Source of the DNA: Omnitrophica bacterium RBG_13_46_9
GTDB taxonomy: Bacteria; Omnitrophota; Gorgyraeia; JABMRN01; RBG-13-46-9
Length of the DNA stretch: 32,935 nucleotides
NCBI GenBank assembly: GCA_001804045.1
Contig: MHFD01000076.1
Location: 10,136 to 43,070, forward strand
Reading direction: 5' to 3'
Shown here: in pieces, positions 9,913 through 27,133 of the stretch
Numbering within the stretch: the first letter of the stretch is position 1
Layout of the letters: every line of letters starts with the position of its first letter
Translations under genes and position numbers: made by a program
Notes under the pieces: model-generated
What the model was told of the DNA's origin: nothing
Seen by the model: the letters and a program-made list of their open reading frames with translations, nothing else
Databases searched by the model: none

Positions 9913-11253
9913 ATGAATAACGGAAAGCTTTTGATTTTGAGTCTTGATGGCGCTTCCTGGGAAGGGTTAAAACCTTTTCAGGAACAAGGGAAATTGCCTA
10001 TAATAAGCTCATTGGTGAGTTCCGGCATGTCAGGGCCGCTTTCTTCTATGCTACCGACCTTCACATACCCCAATTGGGGGAGTTTCTGGACAGGACAAAA
10101 CCCCGGCCGACACGGGATATTCGCATTTAAAGAGCTGCGGTCGAGAGGAAGGTTGCACCAACTCGTGGGATGGAACTCACTTAAACTGCCGACCTGGCCC
10201 GAACTAGCGCATAGTCGAGGCTTCAAGATGGTTTCGGTATACGCCCCCCTTACCTACCCTCCGGCAAAACTTAACGGTCTTATCGTAGCGGACCAGCACA
10301 TGAGAAATTCCCGTAATTTCACGCATCCTGCGAGATTGGCCGGAGAACTCCGCTCCAGGTTTGGGAGGGTGTGCCCGCCTAAATCCGAGCAATTTTTCCC
10401 CCCTGGCGGTTTTCGGGACTCAGAATCCATGCGTGAATTTGTCCAAAAGCAAATTCAGAGCGTACTTCAGACCGGGGCAATAGCAGAGTATCTCCTTAAG
10501 AAACCTTCATGGGATATATGCATGGTTCATTTTTTCGCGACGGATCCCCTGCAGCACGCCCTCTGGCATCTTATGGACTCCGGACATCCAGCTTTTAGCG
10601 CAGAGGGACATCAGGAAATAGCGAAGTTCTTTGAGGCGCTGGATACGGCTATCGGGCGATTGATAGAGGAGGTAAAGCCGGGCATGGTCACGTTATTTTC
10701 TGTGCATGGGTTTACAGCTACCCGCGGTATCCTAAATCTATCCCGTTGTCTATTCGATTCTCTCGATAGAAAACCAAGAGGTGTTTTTCTTGATTGTAAA
10801 GCGATATATGTATACAATAAAATACGGGAAAACGGCGCGATTACAGATATTCTTATTCAAGCCCTGCAAAGCTTAAAGGACCCTTCTTCCGGGTCCCATG
10901 TAATACGCAGGGCCTGGCTGGCAAAGGAGTTGTACGGTTTTGTATCGTTCCCGGAGTGGGATGTAATAGTTTTGGAATTCAACGAAGGTTATACCGGCCG
11001 TGACGGTGATTTGAGGGCTCCTCTTTTCAAGATGTGCCGGCCAAATCGGGATTATTTGATCGGTACCCATACCCGGAAAGGTCTCTGGTTATTCTGCGGC
11101 AAGGGAGTACCTGCCCGCGGCGGTCTTCAAACCGGCATTTTAGACCTTCCTCCCACGATTCTAAACTATCTTGGGGTAACTGTCCCGGAATACATGGAAG
11201 GAAGCCCGCTTCCGCTCTTTACTTCTGTTATGTCAGGGCAAAAGACAGAATAA
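9913..11253 (+). CDS. alkaline-phosphatase-superfamily enzyme, nucleotide pyrophosphatase/phosphodiesterase (NPP) type
   Basis: Metal-ligand motif LILSLDGASWEGL. Thr-nucleophile motif PTFTYPNWGSFWTGQNPGRHGI. Later His motifs LFSVHGF and LIGTHTRKG. Confidence 0.75.
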   Translation: MNNGKLLILSLDGASWEGLKPFQEQGKLPIISSLVSSGMSGPLSSMLPTFTYPNWGSFWTGQNPGRHGIFAFKELRSRGRLHQLVGWNSLKLPTWPELAHSRGFKMVSVYAPLTYPPAKLNGLIVADQHMRNSRNFTHPARLAGELRSRFGRVCPPKSEQFFPPGGFRDSESMREFVQKQIQSVLQTGAIAEYLLKKPSWDICMVHFFATDPLQHALWHLMDSGHPAFSAEGHQEIAKFFEALDTAIGRLIEEVKPGMVTLFSVHGFTATRGILNLSRCLFDSLDRKPRGVFLDCKAIYVYNKIRENGAITDILIQALQSLKDPSSGSHVIRRAWLAKELYGFVSFPEWDVIVLEFNEGYTGRDGDLRAPLFKMCRPNRDYLIGTHTRKGLWLFCGKGVPARGGLQTGILDLPPTILNYLGVTVPEYMEGSPLPLFTSVMSGQKTE

Positions 11254-11255
11254 AA

Positions 11256-13463
11256 ATGAAAATCGGACAAAAAGGCGAAAATCTTATCTTCCTTATTTCC
11301 CAGCCGCGGTCGGGCTCAACCATGCTCCAGCGGATCCTGGGAAACCACCATGATATATATACAGTATCAGAGCCATGGCTTATGGTCCCTCCGCTTGTAG
11401 GGCTGACATGTAGATGGTCCAGCCCCGAAGGGAGAGAGGCCCGTTTTGCGCGTGAAAATGTGCGCCGTTTCCTTGAGACATTTCCAGGCGGGCGCGATGA
11501 CTACTTTGAAGGCTTGCGACGCATGTATGTATACCTGTATAACCGTGCCCTTGAAAACTCGGGTAAGCGTTATTTCCTCGATAAAACACCGAGATACGCT
11601 TATTTCATACCCGAACTTTACAGGGTCTTTCCGGAAGCGCGCTACATATTCCTGCTGCGTAATCCGCTGGCAGTTCTATGCTCAATCGTCACAAACTGGA
11701 CGGGTTACGATAAGCGGACGCTTTCGACGGATCACAATGACGACCTGGTAGACGTCCCGCGTCTATTGCTTGAGGGTATGAATATCCTGGATTCAAAAGC
11801 CATAAAAGTCCACTATGAGCGCCTGGTATCCCAGCCGGATGCAGAGATAAGGAGAATCTGTGAAAATATAGGCGTGGGGTTTTACCCGGAAATAATCGAA
11901 TATAACGCGTACGGCCTTCCTCAATGGTGCTTTGGAGACCAATTTGTGTATAAACATACAGCCCCTGATGCGCGGAAATCCGAAAGCTGGAAAGCAGCCG
12001 TCAGAGACCCGCGGATGTGGGGATTCGCCTACAGTTACCTTGGATCTCTGGGTAAAGACCTTGTCGAACACCTCGGGTACTCTTACCGGGAACTGCATGG
12101 AGTCCTTCAGAACTCCCGGCCACATTGGCTCGTGAGAGGGCTGGCAGCTTTAGTGCAATGGCCACGTATACGGTCTTTATACGGTGCCGTAAAATCCGTC
12201 ATTAGAAAGATATCGTCTTTCTTTACCTTATCCTTCATCGCAGTGTTCTTTATGGAACCGTTTTTTTGGTTTCTGGGCCTGCGAGGGAAAAATAGAGACG
12301 TCGGTGCGGGCAGCGCTAAGCGCATATTGGTGGTGCGTCTGGATTCGATCGGAGACTTGGTACTGACAACCCCTTTCCTGAGAGAACTCCGCCGGAATTC
12401 GCCCGGCTCATTTATCACTCTTATAGTCGACCCGCGCGCTTTAAACCTGGTTGATATCTGCCCTTATGTAGATGAGGTGCTGACATACGACTGGAGAGCG
12501 CGGGGCTCCTTTAAAAAATTGAAAAAGTGTTTCCGGGCCGTGAATTTCTCTGCCTTCAACCTCTGGGAAAAAAGATTTGACCTGGCAATAACGCCTCGTT
12601 GGGGAACCGATTATTATCACGGGTCTTTTCTGGCGTATATTAGCGGAGCCAGGGATAGAATCGGCTATTCCGAATATACGAGCGCCGATAAACGCAGGTT
12701 AAACAGGGGGTATGATAATTTTATTACACATTTAATTACGGATGGTCCGCATGAAGCCACTCGGTTTTGCGGCGTTTCCGATTGTGGGGTTCCGTTCCGC
12801 GAAGCCCCGCAATACCGCTGGCACACGGTCAAACATGAGGTAGTACGCAATTTAGACGTGATAAAATTTTTGGGGCGGGAGCCCTCCGGTGACGATCTGG
12901 AATTATGGATAGAAGATTCCGATAAGGTCTTTGCCGGAGAGATCCTAAGGAAATATGAAGTAAAGTCCGGCGAGGCATTGGTCTGTTTCGGCGTGGGGTC
13001 CCAGGAGCCAAAAAAGATATGGCCCATCGGGTATTTTGCCGATTTGGGTGCCTGGCTCATAAAAGAATACGGCGTGCGTATATTGCTTTTGGGGAACGAG
13101 CAGGAAAAGCCGTTGGGAGAAAGGATGGAAAAAGATTTAAAAGAAGGCCCTGTCATCAATATGATAGGAAATACCACCTTACGCCGGGCAGCCGCTTTGA
13201 TAAAACACTGTAAGGCTTACATAGGCAATGACAACGGCTTAATGCACATATCGGCCGCCATGGGAATACCTGTGGTAGAGGCGTCCTGCTGGCCAAAATC
13301 AGGCTCGCTATTTGGCGAGGATAGTCCCTGCCGTTTCGGGCCATGGAAAGTCAAGAATATTGTCGTCAGCTCTCAAAAAATAGCCGGTTCCAAAGACAAT
13401 GGCATATCGCGGGTGACGGTCGAAGAGATGAAAAAGGCGGTAAGGGAGATATTGTCGAGCTGA
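11256..13463 (+). CDS. fusion protein: N-terminal sulfotransferase domain, predicted TM segment, C-terminal GT9 (heptosyltransferase-family) domain
   Basis: The ATG at 11256 lies 2 nt after the upstream stop. The track start at 11034 would overlap the upstream gene by 220 nt. N-terminal PAPS loop FLISQPRSGSTMLQRILGN plus LLRNPLAVLCS. Hydrophobic FFTLSFIAVFFMEPFFWFLGL (about 12210-12282). GT9 signatures ILVVRLDSIGDLVLTTPFLRELR and YIGNDNGLMHISAAMGIPVV. Confidence 0.8.
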   Translation: MKIGQKGENLIFLISQPRSGSTMLQRILGNHHDIYTVSEPWLMVPPLVGLTCRWSSPEGREARFARENVRRFLETFPGGRDDYFEGLRRMYVYLYNRALENSGKRYFLDKTPRYAYFIPELYRVFPEARYIFLLRNPLAVLCSIVTNWTGYDKRTLSTDHNDDLVDVPRLLLEGMNILDSKAIKVHYERLVSQPDAEIRRICENIGVGFYPEIIEYNAYGLPQWCFGDQFVYKHTAPDARKSESWKAAVRDPRMWGFAYSYLGSLGKDLVEHLGYSYRELHGVLQNSRPHWLVRGLAALVQWPRIRSLYGAVKSVIRKISSFFTLSFIAVFFMEPFFWFLGLRGKNRDVGAGSAKRILVVRLDSIGDLVLTTPFLRELRRNSPGSFITLIVDPRALNLVDICPYVDEVLTYDWRARGSFKKLKKCFRAVNFSAFNLWEKRFDLAITPRWGTDYYHGSFLAYISGARDRIGYSEYTSADKRRLNRGYDNFITHLITDGPHEATRFCGVSDCGVPFREAPQYRWHTVKHEVVRNLDVIKFLGREPSGDDLELWIEDSDKVFAGEILRKYEVKSGEALVCFGVGSQEPKKIWPIGYFADLGAWLIKEYGVRILLLGNEQEKPLGERMEKDLKEGPVINMIGNTTLRRAAALIKHCKAYIGNDNGLMHISAAMGIPVVEASCWPKSGSLFGEDSPCRFGPWKVKNIVVSSQKIAGSKDNGISRVTVEEMKKAVREILSS

Positions 13464-13798: not shown

Positions 13799-14215
13799 TT
13801 ATTTATTACGCAATTTCTCAATTGCTTTTCCTGTCGGAAGAAACAATAGTAGCCGCTTGCCCTCTTTCTCTATTTCAAAAAACCCCTTTATGGCAAGAGC
13901 TATTAAATCCTTACGAGCAGTATCATATGCAATACCGTGAGTATTTTTATGGGCTTCTATTGTATAAATATTATCTGGATGTTGAATAGAGTGATAGATT
14001 AAACTCTTTTGTCGTAAATTTAATCCACGAAACTTATCTAATAGTTCGTTTGCTTTTGATATTTCCCTCTGTTTGTTTTTTAAATATTTTCTCAATTCAT
14101 TCAAAGCAAACCTAATAGCAAGTAAATTGTGAAGCTCCACCGCCTTACAGCGGTGGCTTCTCTTTTTACAGGGTTCCGCTCTATCGGTGGAGCGGAACCC
14201 TGAACCGAAAGCCAT
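13799..14215 (-). pseudogene. Fic-family protein, C-terminal (winged-helix-like) fragment; its first 29 codons are encoded by the inserted element
   Basis: From NLLAIRFALNELRKYL onward it reads as the continuation of the upstream Fic ORF. It is in the same frame as 14249-15277, separated by 33 nt. The ATG and the MAFGSGFRSTDRAEPCKKRSHRCKAVELH leader lie inside the 126-nt element. Confidence 0.7.
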
Positions 14216-14254
14216 TCATCCGCGCCCTTACAGGCGTGGCTTTCTGGTTCATGG
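14129..14254 (-). mobile_element. 126-nt non-autonomous IS200/IS605-like element (PATE/MITE), copy 1, inserted in the Fic gene
   Basis: The reverse complement equals 26779-26904 at 118 of 126 positions; only the 8-nt central loop differs. The left flank on the element strand is TTAC. It has two direct subterminal hairpins with tgtaag loops plus a 13-bp perfect central palindrome. Confidence 0.8.
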
Positions 14255-15277
14255 GTAAACTAGAAAATAAGTCAGATCATTCTCATCATATTCAGTATAA
14301 AGATATCCTCTTACATATTGGCCAGGGGCTCTAAGAAAATGTTTTGAAATAGATAAATATTGAAAAAGTTCATAACCACGGCTCAGGAGATACCAATACA
14401 TCAATGCTCTGGCCGTTCTCCCATTCCCGTCGGTAAAGGGATGATCATACGCTAACCAAAAATGGATCATCGCTCCTTTAATGATGGAATGAATCCAATT
14501 TTCTTCGTCATCTTGATTTACAAACTCAATCAGTTTATTCATCCTGTCCTTTAGCGTATCTGCTTTAGGTGGGATATGCACAGTTTCATCTCTGTATGTA
14601 ACAACAATGTCATCCCTATCCCTAAATTTTCCTGCCTCACTAGGAGATTTCAATGTATCTTGCGTCAAAATAGTATGCAGTTCATAGAGTTTATCTGCAG
14701 AAAAGGGTGTTTTAATATTTTCTCGAATGAATTGCATTGCATGCCAATTGTTAAATATCATCTGCTCATTTTTGTCTTTGGGTTTACGCCCAGACCGTAA
14801 CATTTCTTTTGCAATCCTATACTCTGTTAAGGCCCCTTCTAGCTGGCTAGATGCAATGGCTTCGTCCATTAAAGAGCTTATAATATATTTCTCTTTGGCT
14901 GGAAGGCTAAATGGGTGGTCAGTAATTATTTGTCCCCCAGACCATTTATCAACATCACTTATGCCGCGATGCAGACAATCTGGTATCCAATACGTAAAGG
15001 GTCGATTGTTTTTGTCCATTATAGGTGTAGTTTTCCTGTTTGCGGAACGCCCTAATTTTAAATACGCCCATATTTCTTCAGCCTTGATTTCTATATTATT
15101 CGCTGGCATGCGATGAATAACATCCGACCAATAAAAGTATCGATCGCTGGCTTTGCGTATCAGATTCTGCAGTTCTGGTATTTGACCAATTTTTAGAATC
15201 TTTAAAAAACTTTCCGGGTTACCAAATATACTATTCAGATTTGGAGGTGATTCAACGAGCAAGAAAAAACCTCTCAC
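14249..15277 (-). pseudogene. Fic-family protein (AMPylase-type), N-terminal plus catalytic part, terminated by a stop inside the inserted element
   Basis: Fic motif HPFTDGNGRTAR (14408-14443). Inhibitory-helix-type motif SSQLEG (14834-14851). The ORF ends ...DLTYFLVY-P-stop, with the P codon and TGA contributed by the element. The GTG start at 15277 lies inside a terminator hairpin, so the true start is uncertain. Confidence 0.8.
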
Positions 15278-15298
15278 TTTTTAAGCAAGAGGTTTTTT
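15264..15298 (-). terminator. rho-independent terminator-like hairpin downstream of tRNA-Glu
   Basis: aaaaAACCTCT-13 nt loop-AGAGGTTtttt. It is symmetric with A/T runs on both sides, and lies 13 nt downstream of the tRNA 3' end on the minus strand. Confidence 0.5.
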
Positions 15299-15310
15299 AC
15301 AACGAGTTAG

Positions 15311-15385
15311 CAGCCCCACGGGGATTCGAACCCCGGTCTTCAGAATGAAAATCTGATGTCCTAGGCCGGGCTAGACGATGGGGCC
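15311..15385 (-). tRNA. tRNA-Glu (anticodon UUC), no encoded CCA
   Basis: The minus strand reads GGCCCCA TC GTCT AGCCCGGCCTA GGAC A TCAGA TTTTCAT TCTGA AGAC CGGGG TTCGAAT CCCCG TGGGGCT G. This gives a full cloverleaf with anticodon loop TT-TTC-AT. The D-arm and T-arm closely resemble E. coli tRNA-Glu. Positions 1-72 form a G-U pair. Confidence 0.88.
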
Positions 15386-15516
15386 AAATTTTCGCCTTAA
15401 GAAAATTTGGCACTGAGGAAATGTTGTCAATTCGACCTTATGGGAGAATTGACCATTTCCGAAGTACCTTATCATAGCTAATAGCCATTAGCCATTGGCT
15501 AAGAGCTATAAACTAT

Positions 15517-20562: not shown

Positions 20563-20573
20563 TTAAGCTGCAT

Positions 20574-20589
20574 GCCCTTACAGGCGTGG
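20574..20589 (-). repeat. isolated hairpin module (gcccttacaggcgtgg) identical to the left-end hairpin core of the 126-nt element
   Basis: This 16-mer is identical to 14224-14239 and to the reverse complement of the corresponding core in the 26779-26904 copy. It is embedded in a multi-hairpin spacer between the DUF721 gene and gyrB. Confidence 0.6.
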
Positions 20590-20698
20590 GATCTTTCCTC
20601 TCGCTTCGGCGAAGCGAAGCAACCTCAAAGATTGCTTCGTCGGCCTTAACAGGCCTCCTCGCAATACGAGGCCATTACAAGTATTTATGAGATGGCCT

Positions 20699-21007
20699 CT
20701 ATTTAATTTGGCCGATTCTGAATTGCAGTTCCCTGACTTTTCTTCTGCTTTTTAAATTTTCATTGAACCTTCTTAGCAAACTGTCTTTCTCCAGGGTAAG
20801 CTTGTAAAGCCAGGATGAATCACTTACATTAACAACAAGCCTTTTGGCCCTAAGAAAAGCTGGCCTGGCGTGCTTCGAAGCGCTTTTACCAACCGTTTTC
20901 TCCCATAGTTTTATGATACCCGCTTCATACTCCTCTTTTTTTTTCAGATTTGAAATTATTTTGTTTAATACGCCCTTTAGCGGTTCGGGTTTTTTATCAT
21001 TGTTCAT
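20699..21007 (-). CDS. DUF721 domain protein (DciA-like)
   Basis: 102 aa. It has the typical DUF721 pattern LWEKTVGKSASKHARPAFLRAKRLVVNVSDSSWLYKLTLEKDSLLRRFNENL. It occupies the conserved position between dnaN and gyrB. Confidence 0.7.
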   Translation of the reverse strand: MNNDKKPEPLKGVLNKIISNLKKKEEYEAGIIKLWEKTVGKSASKHARPAFLRAKRLVVNVSDSSWLYKLTLEKDSLLRRFNENLKSRRKVRELQFRIGQIK

Positions 21008-22348: not shown

Positions 22349-23740
22349 TTAAGAACCACTCTTTATGCTTAAAACCAGTTTATCTATAACCCAACCCATC
22401 TTTTCATCCTTTTTTAAGTCATTTTCAATCTTCTCACAGGCATGAAGGACTGTTGTATGGTCCCTCCCGCCGAAAAAACGCCCTATCTCAGGCAGGGAAA
22501 GATCTGTAAGGTCCCTACTTAAGTACATGGCTATCTGGCGCGGATAAGCCACCGCTTTTGTCCTTTTTTTTATCTTCATGTCTTGCAGATTGATATTAAA
22601 ATATTGAGCCACTTTTTTTTGTATCAGATCGACCCCGACTCTTTTCTCGCCCTCAATAATCATCTCTTTTAATACCTCTTTGGCGAGGTCTATAGTTATG
22701 TCTTTGTTCATCAATTTTGCGTAAGCGACTACGCGTATAAGCGCACCCTCCAGCTCCCTTATATTTGTTTTAACTTTTTCGGCCAACAAGAAAAAGAAAT
22801 CATCGGGCAGGTGTATGGTTTCCGCCTCACATTTCTTTCTTAAAATCGCTATTCTTGTTTCAAAATCGGGCGGCTGGATATCCGTAATCAAACCCCACTC
22901 AAACCTGGATATCAACCTCTCCTCTAAAGTAGGGATTTCTTTGGGCGAACGGTCGCTTGACAGCACTATCTGTTTATGGGCGTCGTACAAAGAATTGAAT
23001 GTATGGAAAAACTCTTCCTGCGTGGCTTCCTTGCCCGCTATGAAATGGATATCATCTATTAAGATCATATCCACAGTGCGGTACTTCTGTCGGAATTTTT
23101 GCGTAGCCCTGTTCTGAATCGCGGATATCAATTGATTTGTGAACTCTTCGCTGGATATATATAATATCTTTGCTCTAGTGTTATTTTTTGCCAGCTCATT
23201 TCCCATCGCGTGCATGAGGTGGGTCTTGCCTAATCCGACACCCCCATATATGAAAAGCGGGTTATACGCTTTGGCGGGGGATTCCGCGATAGCCAATGAG
23301 GCGGCGTGGGCAAATCTGTTGCTCGGGCCCACCACGAAACTGTCAAATGTATATTTTGGATTTAGACCCGTATCTTTTAAAAAAACATCCTCGGCTTGCT
23401 TGGGAAAGACAGACCTGAACCACCCCTTCTTCTGTGTTGGTTTTTTTTCGGATTCCTTTTGGGGCGCCACTTCTTTGACGGCCGAAATAGAGAATTCTAT
23501 ATTTATCTTCTTGTTGGCGATTTCACTCAGGTAGGAACCTAATAGGTTTGAGTATCTTTCTCTGACCCACTCTTTAAAAAATTCATTGGGAACTCCAAGC
23601 GTAAGCGTATCATCCGAAAGAGATACGGGTATTATCGGCGCAAACCATGCATTAAATACCTGCTCACTGACCTCGCTTTTTATGCAGTTCAGGAGGTTGT
23701 CCCACAATTCTTTATGAACATTTTCCACAGGGTTATCCAC
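22349..23740 (-). CDS. dnaA: chromosomal replication initiator DnaA
   Basis: 463 aa. AAA+ Walker A GGVGLGKTHLMHA, Walker B ILIDDIHF, sensor and box VII regions. C-terminal DNA-binding helix GGRDHTTVLHACEKI. The start is GTG at 23740 (alternative GTG at 23728). Confidence 0.96.
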   Translation of the reverse strand: MDNPVENVHKELWDNLLNCIKSEVSEQVFNAWFAPIIPVSLSDDTLTLGVPNEFFKEWVRERYSNLLGSYLSEIANKKINIEFSISAVKEVAPQKESEKKPTQKKGWFRSVFPKQAEDVFLKDTGLNPKYTFDSFVVGPSNRFAHAASLAIAESPAKAYNPLFIYGGVGLGKTHLMHAMGNELAKNNTRAKILYISSEEFTNQLISAIQNRATQKFRQKYRTVDMILIDDIHFIAGKEATQEEFFHTFNSLYDAHKQIVLSSDRSPKEIPTLEERLISRFEWGLITDIQPPDFETRIAILRKKCEAETIHLPDDFFFLLAEKVKTNIRELEGALIRVVAYAKLMNKDITIDLAKEVLKEMIIEGEKRVGVDLIQKKVAQYFNINLQDMKIKKRTKAVAYPRQIAMYLSRDLTDLSLPEIGRFFGGRDHTTVLHACEKIENDLKKDEKMGWVIDKLVLSIKSGS

Positions 23741-23796
23741 AGCTATTCGACCAGTAATTCAATATAAATATACAGTTTATTCACAGGTTATCCACA
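23721..23796 (+). promoter_or_regulatory. cluster of four co-oriented DnaA boxes at the dnaA 5' end / promoter
   Basis: TTTTCCACA 23721-23729, TTATCCACA 23733-23741 (perfect), TTATTCACA 23777-23785, TTATCCACA 23788-23796 (perfect). Confidence 0.65.
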
Positions 23797-26741: not shown

Positions 26742-26778
26742 ATTGATAAATAAAGTTATGTGGCAGAAATGTATTTAC

Positions 26779-26904
26779 CCATGAACCAGAAAGCCACGCC
26801 TGTAAGGGCGCGGATGAATGGCTTTCGGTTCAGGGTTCCGCTCTATCGGTGGAGCGGAACCCTGTAAAAAGAGAAGCCACCGCTGTAAGGCGGTGGAGCT
26901 TCAC
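26779..26904 (+). mobile_element. 126-nt non-autonomous IS200/IS605-like element (PATE/MITE), copy 2, between yidC and the Jag_N gene
   Basis: The left flank is TTAC (26775-26778). AAAG (26790-26793) precedes hairpin CCACGCC-tgtaag-GGCGCGG (26794-26813). The central palindrome is at 26831-26864. GAAG (26873-26876) precedes hairpin CCACCGC-tgtaag-GCGGTGG (26877-26896). The element ends in TCAC (26901-26904). Confidence 0.8.
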
Positions 26905-26932
26905 GTCACATCATTTTAAACACGGTGCAAGA

Positions 26933-27133
26933 ATGAAAGAAAGATTTATTGAAGTAGAAGCGAAGACGACCCAAGAAGCAATAAAAATAGCGCTTGAAAA
27001 ACTAAATGTGAAAAAAGAAGATGTCGAGATAAAGATATTGCGCGAAGAACATAAAGGTCTTTTTGGAATGGAAGGCGCAGAGCTAGCCAAGATAAAAGCT
27101 ATAGTTAAAAAAAGATCACAAAAAAACCTATAA
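26933..27133 (+). CDS. Jag_N-domain-only protein (truncated Jag/KhpB homologue)
   Basis: MKERFIEVEAKTTQEAIKIALEKLNVKKEDVEIKILREEHKGLFGMEGAELAKIKA matches the Jag N-terminal domain. The protein stops after 66 aa, with no KH or R3H domain. The track start at 26849 is a GTG inside the element palindrome and is rejected. Confidence 0.7.
   Translation: MKERFIEVEAKTTQEAIKIALEKLNVKKEDVEIKILREEHKGLFGMEGAELAKIKAIVKKRSQKNL

Follow-up and report, generated by a model that had tools for sequence, protein, structure and literature searches.

Two copies of a 126-nt element that carries no gene lie in opposite orientations in the 32,935-nt stretch of DNA analysed here (the window), and in one of them, copy 2, the 8-nt loop of a central palindrome is exactly inverted with respect to the rest of the element. 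We consider it probable, with fairly high confidence, that this element is an IS608-like PATE in which a single rare and energetically neutral template switch inverted the loop of copy 2, without the involvement of any programmed switch.

Copy 1 has its top strand on the - strand (14129-14254) and lies within a Fic-family gene, and copy 2 has its top strand on the + strand (26779-26904), in the spacer between yidC and jag. The central palindrome, with perfect arms of 13 bp, reads exactly CAGGGTTCCGCTC-TATCGGTG-GAGCGGAACCCTG on the + strand at both loci (14169-14202 and 26831-26864) and forms there a perfect direct repeat (34/34 identical), while the flanks around both palindromes constitute an inverted repeat (14129-14259 versus 26774-26904, 131 nt, 97% complementary). 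A preliminary reading made before any database search (the sequence-only reading) had pointed to this identical + strand core between inverted flanks, and it was confirmed at these coordinates. Read along the top strand of the element, the loop is CACCGATA in copy 1 (14182-14189, - strand), which is the majority and ancestral state, and TATCGGTG in copy 2 (26844-26851, + strand), which is the flipped and derived state.

Pairwise alignment of the two 131-nt arms revealed four mismatches, all of them in the loop and located at the four positions where TATCGGTG differs from its own reverse complement CACCGATA. The loop of one copy is the exact reverse complement of the other, with its length kept and both halves of the stem intact, and the earlier claim that the copies differ solely by the clean inversion of what lies between the arms was borne out by this alignment. 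No match to the palindrome pattern was found in 100 shuffles of the sequence. The probability that four independent substitutions would yield the exact flip and leave the rest of the 131 nt unchanged is about 1/(C(131,4) x 3^4), roughly 1e-9 as an arithmetic estimate; therefore the flip is not a product of ordinary point mutation, as the sequence-only reading had also held.

Insertion site, ends and identity of the element

The Fic-family gene split by copy 1 spans 13799-15277 on the - strand (Pfam match to Fic, E=2.7e-20), with an N-terminal ORF at 14249-15277 and the C-terminal part within ORF 13799-14215. To represent the empty site, the two Fic halves were joined with the 5 nt TTTAC kept and an N-terminal piece of 342 codons, and this query recovered intact homologues of 445 aa with 81-84% identity. 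Fic genes are horizontal movers, and the best named relative of the interrupted gene belongs to Candidatus Omnitrophica. Ten intact homologues were gap-free over the insertion point, where they read DLTYFLVYNLL, and the DNA of an intact homologue reads GTTTAT-AATTTAC, compared to GTTTAC + 126 nt + AATTTAC in the window. Exact removal of the 126 nt restored the Fic frame. The gap-free homologues and the empty site, both of them observed directly, therefore define the mobile unit as 126 nt inserted exactly 3' of TTTAC, without duplication or loss of DNA. This is the length that the sequence-only reading had assigned to the element, and the 131 nt shared by the two copies correspond to the TTTAC target (5 nt) plus the 126-nt element; a candidate element of 131 nt with no target motif was overturned by the Fic frame and the intact homologues. 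Given the exactness of the insertion, a precise excision would return the Fic gene to the form of the intact 445-aa homologues in other assemblies. The TTTAC target of copy 1 (14255-14259, - strand) lies inside the Val-Tyr codons GTT TAC of the interrupted gene, and that of copy 2 (26774-26778, + strand) is flank DNA outside the element.

The ends of the element, CCATGAACC... and ...GAGCTTCAC, are not complementary, so that terminal inverted repeats are lacking, and the junctions have the form TTTAC/CCATGAACCAGAAAG...GAGCTTCAC, where the slash marks the point of insertion. Since the element has neither terminal inverted repeats nor a target-site duplication, its assignment as a classical MITE of a DDE transposon was rejected. 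Instead, both ends carry subterminal hairpins in direct orientation on one strand. On the + strand of copy 2, the left imperfect hairpin CCACGCC-TGTAAG-GGCGCGG (26794-26813) is preceded by the guide tetranucleotide AAAG (26790-26793), which occupies the 4 nt 5' of the hairpin foot. The right end (26873-26904) comprises the guide GAAG (26873-26876), the hairpin CCACCGC-TGTAAG-GCGGTGG (26877-26896) and the cleavage tetranucleotide TCAC (26901-26904). Each guide stands directly 5' of a hairpin foot, with AAAG paired to TTAC on the left and GAAG to TCAC on the right, and the distance from the cleavage site to the hairpin foot is 15 nt on the left and 8 nt on the right. The central palindrome (26831-26864 in copy 2; 14169-14202, - strand, in copy 1) lies 3' of the left-end hairpin.

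This organization was compared with that of IS608 from Helicobacter pylori, which integrates 3' of TTAC with no DNA added or removed, carries subterminal hairpins on its top strand and has guides 5' of the hairpin feet, AAAG for TTAC on the left and GAAT for TCAA on the right (PMC3201880, PMC5934647). The element shares with it the insertion 3' of TTAC without duplication, the direct orientation of the end hairpins and the left guide AAAG, and its right guide and cleavage site obey the same pairing pattern. The pairs between guide base 1 and position -3 and between guide base 2 and position -4 are preserved at both ends of the element (G:C(-3) and A:T(-4)). At the right end, guide base 4 and the -1 base have changed jointly with respect to IS608, from T:A to G:C, and we infer a rule by which guide base 4 would pair with the -1 base. 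A second, smaller hairpin 3' of the left-end hairpin has also been described in the literature for IS608, ISDra2 and IS605. In contrast to IS608, the element is only 126 nt long and lacks tnpA and tnpB, its spacings are 15 and 8 nt instead of 19 nt (left) and 10 nt (right), its right end combines GAAG with TCAC instead of GAAT with TCAA, and it has an extra, invariant T at -5 and a much longer internal palindrome, with 13-bp perfect arms.

On these sequence features, the element is a gene-less, PATE-type non-autonomous derivative of an IS608-like IS200/IS605 transposon, and forms a sequence family that is new, though its kind is known. With no gene of its own, it would need a Y1 transposase in trans. 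PATEs are gene-less IS200/IS605 derivatives known from Haloquadratum and Geobacillus (PMC3119063, PMC10055086), and the present element resembles them in being short and devoid of protein, in having only IS200/IS605-type ends, in its many near-identical copies and in its presumed mobilisation in trans. It differs from them in sequence family and host, and it is too short for the omega-RNA found in many PATEs; no match to it was found in Rfam. REP/REPIN sequences, mobilised by RAYT, are likewise short hairpin repeats present in many copies without duplication and served by a related Y1 HUH enzyme family, but REPINs are symmetric inverted doublets of one REP unit with no fixed flanking target, whereas the element is asymmetric, with distinct left and right ends, and follows TTTAC at 40/41 sites. 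An assignment to REP/REPIN was rejected on the direct, not inverted, orientation of the end hairpins and on the fixed TTTAC target. The central palindrome was also considered as an intrinsic terminator and discarded, as neither strand shows a T-run after it and a terminator scan flagged only the end hairpins, on the bottom strand.

Rfam gave only chance-level matches on it, the tRNA-Glu being the only hit in the window at gathering score, and blastn against plasmids and phages gave no match. No Y1 transposase was found by tblastn in about 350 kb of this organism, a weak negative given that the query was an approximate consensus, and no solo left or right ends marking a full-length element were found in the same about 350 kb.

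Family census and direction of the change

The sequence-only reading had proposed a census of loop orientation over further copies. Metagenome contigs were scanned with the pattern GCGGTGGCTTCN{30,55}AACCGAAAGCC, in which the end hairpins alone serve as anchors and the palindrome is free. Among the 46 loci detected, nine were chance matches in GC-rich coding DNA and were discarded (L101, L103, L107-L110, L117, L120, L122), and the other 37 held 39 complete copies plus two cut by contig ends. Most of the further complete copies (36/39) came from dataset Ga0154667, with L092 and L134 from Ga0154712. Two diverged relatives were found in other datasets, L104 (2362-2494; Ga0265297) with 88% identity and L135 (1065-1193; Ga0180007) with 92%; the element family is therefore not confined to one genome. 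Counting copies 1 and 2 as well, the complete insertion sites number 41, all distinct, and at 33 of them the element is identical to the consensus. TTTAC was observed directly upstream at 40 of the 41 sites, the exception being TTCAC in L104, and no other position of the flanks is conserved. Most copies are intergenic, and the top strand is co-oriented with 46 of the 57 neighbouring long reading frames. In a scan of a genome collection with GGTTCCGCTCN{4,12}GAGCGGAACC, the matches listed were only unrelated GC-rich hairpins of other phyla, with no element among them.

The top-strand loop is CACCGATA in 38 of the 39 near-identical complete copies, and TATCGGTG was found only in copy 2 of the window. 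As the census pattern was not conditioned on the loop, this directly counted ratio of 38:1 is unbiased. The loops of the relatives, AGCCGAAA in L104 and CATCGTA in L135, both resemble the majority loop more closely than its reverse complement, and the stem of the central palindrome is kept in these relatives with one compensatory change, C-G to U-A. The census and the majority-like loops of the diverged relatives therefore indicate that the majority state is ancestral and that the flip arose once, as a derived change. It is a rare event, and not one of two interconverting states. Many unrelated loop sequences, which the sequence-only reading had named as an outcome that would speak against an inversion, were not seen: the loops are either identical or slowly diverging.

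The remaining variation among the near-identical copies amounts to about eight point changes or indels, distributed over five copies. One inversion at one palindrome thus corresponds to a per-site rate well above that of substitution, as expected of a hairpin hotspot, and is rare in absolute terms. The copy at L105 (6028-6157) is decaying, with three substitutions and a 1-nt deletion at its left end, including a change on one side of an arm (U·G). Restoration of reading frames by removal of the element was ambiguous when applied to all copies; the 694-aa frame obtained in L115 joins an adjacent oxidoreductase to lpxB and was rejected as a chance fusion.

The anatomy of the element is a more useful result than the flip, for it describes a previously uncatalogued IS608-like PATE of 126 nt with at least 41 insertions. 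Its TTTAC target, together with the matched change of right guide and cleavage site relative to IS608, provides a natural data point for the guide code used in retargeting such transposons. Moreover, the element inactivates a Fic gene and adjoins the likely replication origin, both of which are relevant to genome annotation.

Possible causes of the loop inversion

The preferred explanation, a single template switch in the hairpin of copy 2, involves the following steps. The element would be mobilised as single-stranded DNA by 'peel and paste', through a Y1 HUH transposase provided in trans, and would insert into the lagging-strand template 3' of TTTAC. Transposition as ssDNA had already been suggested by the sequence-only reading, and it fits an element of the IS200/IS605 type. 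In the copy located in the yidC-jag spacer, one error of replication would have inverted the 8-nt loop: the nascent strand would copy one arm and then switch, through the identical arm sequence, to the complementary strand or to another copy, the loop would be copied from that strand, and a return switch at the second arm would complete the 'loop inversion'.

Comparable events have been described. Monttinen & Loytynoja (2022) reported 69 'loop inversion only' template-switch events, including bacterial ones with loops of 7-8 nt (PMC8794818), and the inversion of spacers between inverted-repeat arms has been described in yeast (PMC8604942; related report, PMC5453318). By the criteria of PMC8794818 the flip of the element falls into this class, as it shows a perfect stem and a loop that is the exact reverse complement, with its length kept and nothing else changed; it also shares with these events their rarity and their place on terminal branches. 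It differs from them in its location inside the internal palindrome of a multi-copy transposon, and because of this setting the 38 sister copies act as an internal control that polarises the flip. A further analogue is offered by the minute hairpin-associated inversions of chloroplast DNA. The flip is in this sense a clean and well-polarised natural hairpin loop inversion in a bacterial ssDNA transposon, with the 38 sister copies and two outgroups as controls; it illustrates a known class of mutation and opens no new question.

The sequence-only reading had also proposed that both isoforms be folded. Folded as top-strand ssDNA, they gave about equal energies (-41.1 vs -41.5 kcal/mol), and the flip is energetically neutral. 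With regard to the mechanisms proposed in that reading, template switching in the hairpin of an ssDNA-transposing element stands as the most plausible, but a site-specific flip does not, the arms being too close for known invertases.

A rather unlikely alternative is ectopic short-patch gene conversion, in which an oppositely oriented copy would align in direct register through the palindromic core, and a tract confined to arm, loop and arm would paste the loop in backwards. The two palindromes do form a 34/34 direct repeat, there are at least 40 possible donors, lying in both orientations, and the outcome would be indistinguishable from that of an intra-locus template switch as a single event. 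However, the homology flanking the loop would be limited to 13 bp per side, which is below the length usual for efficient RecA-mediated exchange. Moreover, the many donors might predict more than one flipped copy, yet only one of the 39 near-identical copies is flipped.

It is also unlikely that the flip is an artefact absent from the cell, made in vitro when a polymerase switched templates at the hairpin while the whole genome or the library was being amplified, or introduced by consensus polishing. Strand-displacing amplification does make inverted chimeras at short inverted repeats, and the locus, and with it the flip, is known from a single assembly: exact-protein look-ups gave no second assembly of the yidC-jag locus, and the window proteins looked up were singletons. 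On the other hand, at every k from 15 up the flipped copy has k-mers found neither in the consensus nor in its reverse complement, and from k=15 up its junction k-mers also occur in no other copy, whichever strand is read. As a de Bruijn assembler could not produce such a flip on its own, the reads must carry it, and an artefact of the assembly graph alone is unlikely. An origin in vitro would furthermore need two precise switches and a dominant coverage of the product at one locus, with the 38 other loci unaffected. The flip is presumed to be real in the cell.

Should the palindrome invert appreciably at every copy, for instance when it is single-stranded during peel-and-paste transposition or lagging-strand synthesis, the 38:1 census would reflect not rarity but a strongly biased equilibrium, or consensus calling that masks minority reads. 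We regard both this frequent inversion and this explanation of the census as very unlikely; if true, the element family would report template switching naturally at many loci, or would be a genuine flip-flop structure.

Finally, a programmed two-state switch, in which a dedicated activity would flip the loop back and forth between states of different function, is highly improbable. In its favour, the inversion is exact and happens to create a GTG at 26849 in frame with jag, but this GTG lies inside a hairpin loop without a ribosome-binding site, and the match to the Jag N-terminal domain starts at residue 36, downstream of the ATG at 26933. The two isoforms are about equal in folding energy, and both outgroups are in the majority state along with all but one of the 39 copies, against the earlier suggestion that the palindrome is a two-state switch carried by the element. 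A site-specific invertible switch of the Hin/Gin or Fim type was likewise rejected on the 38:1 census, and no recombinase was noted among the ORFs flanking both copies in a Pfam scan of ten window ORFs. To our knowledge, an 8-bp spacer between 13-bp arms could not be synapsed by any known site-specific invertase.

The replication origin region around the two copies

The window covers a chromosomal origin region, with gyrA, gyrB, dnaN and dnaA on the - strand and rnpA, yidD, yidC, a gene for a Jag N-terminal domain and parA on the + strand. Two perfect DnaA boxes, TTATCCACA, are found at 23733-23795, directly upstream of dnaA, and the cumulative GC skew is lowest near 24-25 kb; the 23733-23795 region is likely to be oriC. 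In the IS200/IS605 family, the top strand is expected on the lagging-strand template (PMC5027513). Both window copies have this arrangement provided that oriC is the dnaA/DnaA-box region, the replichore of copy 1 being set only by the position of dnaA and the two DnaA boxes, as the local GC skew in the 33-kb window tracks gene orientation. The oriC candidate is bracketed by the two oppositely oriented PATE copies, and homologous recombination between them could invert the span that holds the origin.

The GTG created by the flipped loop (26849-26851) opens a 94-aa ORF at 26849-27133 (+ strand), in frame with the gene for the Jag N-terminal domain, which the consensus loop would not do. This GTG is probably meaningless, and the true start is likely to be the ATG at 26933. 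The gene that begins there, downstream of yidC (26933-27133, + strand), encodes 66 aa with the Jag N-terminal domain only, lacking the usual KH and R3H domains, with parA about 330 nt further on.

A further short repeat, 93 nt in length, was detected at 20609-20701, in the spacer downstream of the start of gyrB, and at 2330-2422 of L100, another contig of the same dataset, with 95.7% identity. The hairpins GGCCTTAACAGGCC and CCTCGCAATACGAGG lie within this repeat, and just upstream of it, at about 20573-20590, lies GCCCTTACAGGCGTGG, which resembles the bottom-strand form of a PATE end hairpin. The repeat may represent a further non-autonomous element that relies on the same transposase. The tRNA-Glu(UUC) gene (15310-15385, - strand) is also repeated with its flanks, positions 15254-15471 being 94% identical to 98-315 of L134. 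The repeat in L134 lies about 150 nt from the PATE copy there, and represents either a second tRNA-Glu locus or a strain variant. In addition, an 809-aa ORF at 11034-13463 (+ strand) encodes a sulfotransferase domain together with a family 9 (heptosyl) glycosyltransferase domain, an unusual fusion, and its long N-terminus, which starts with GTG, may have been over-called.
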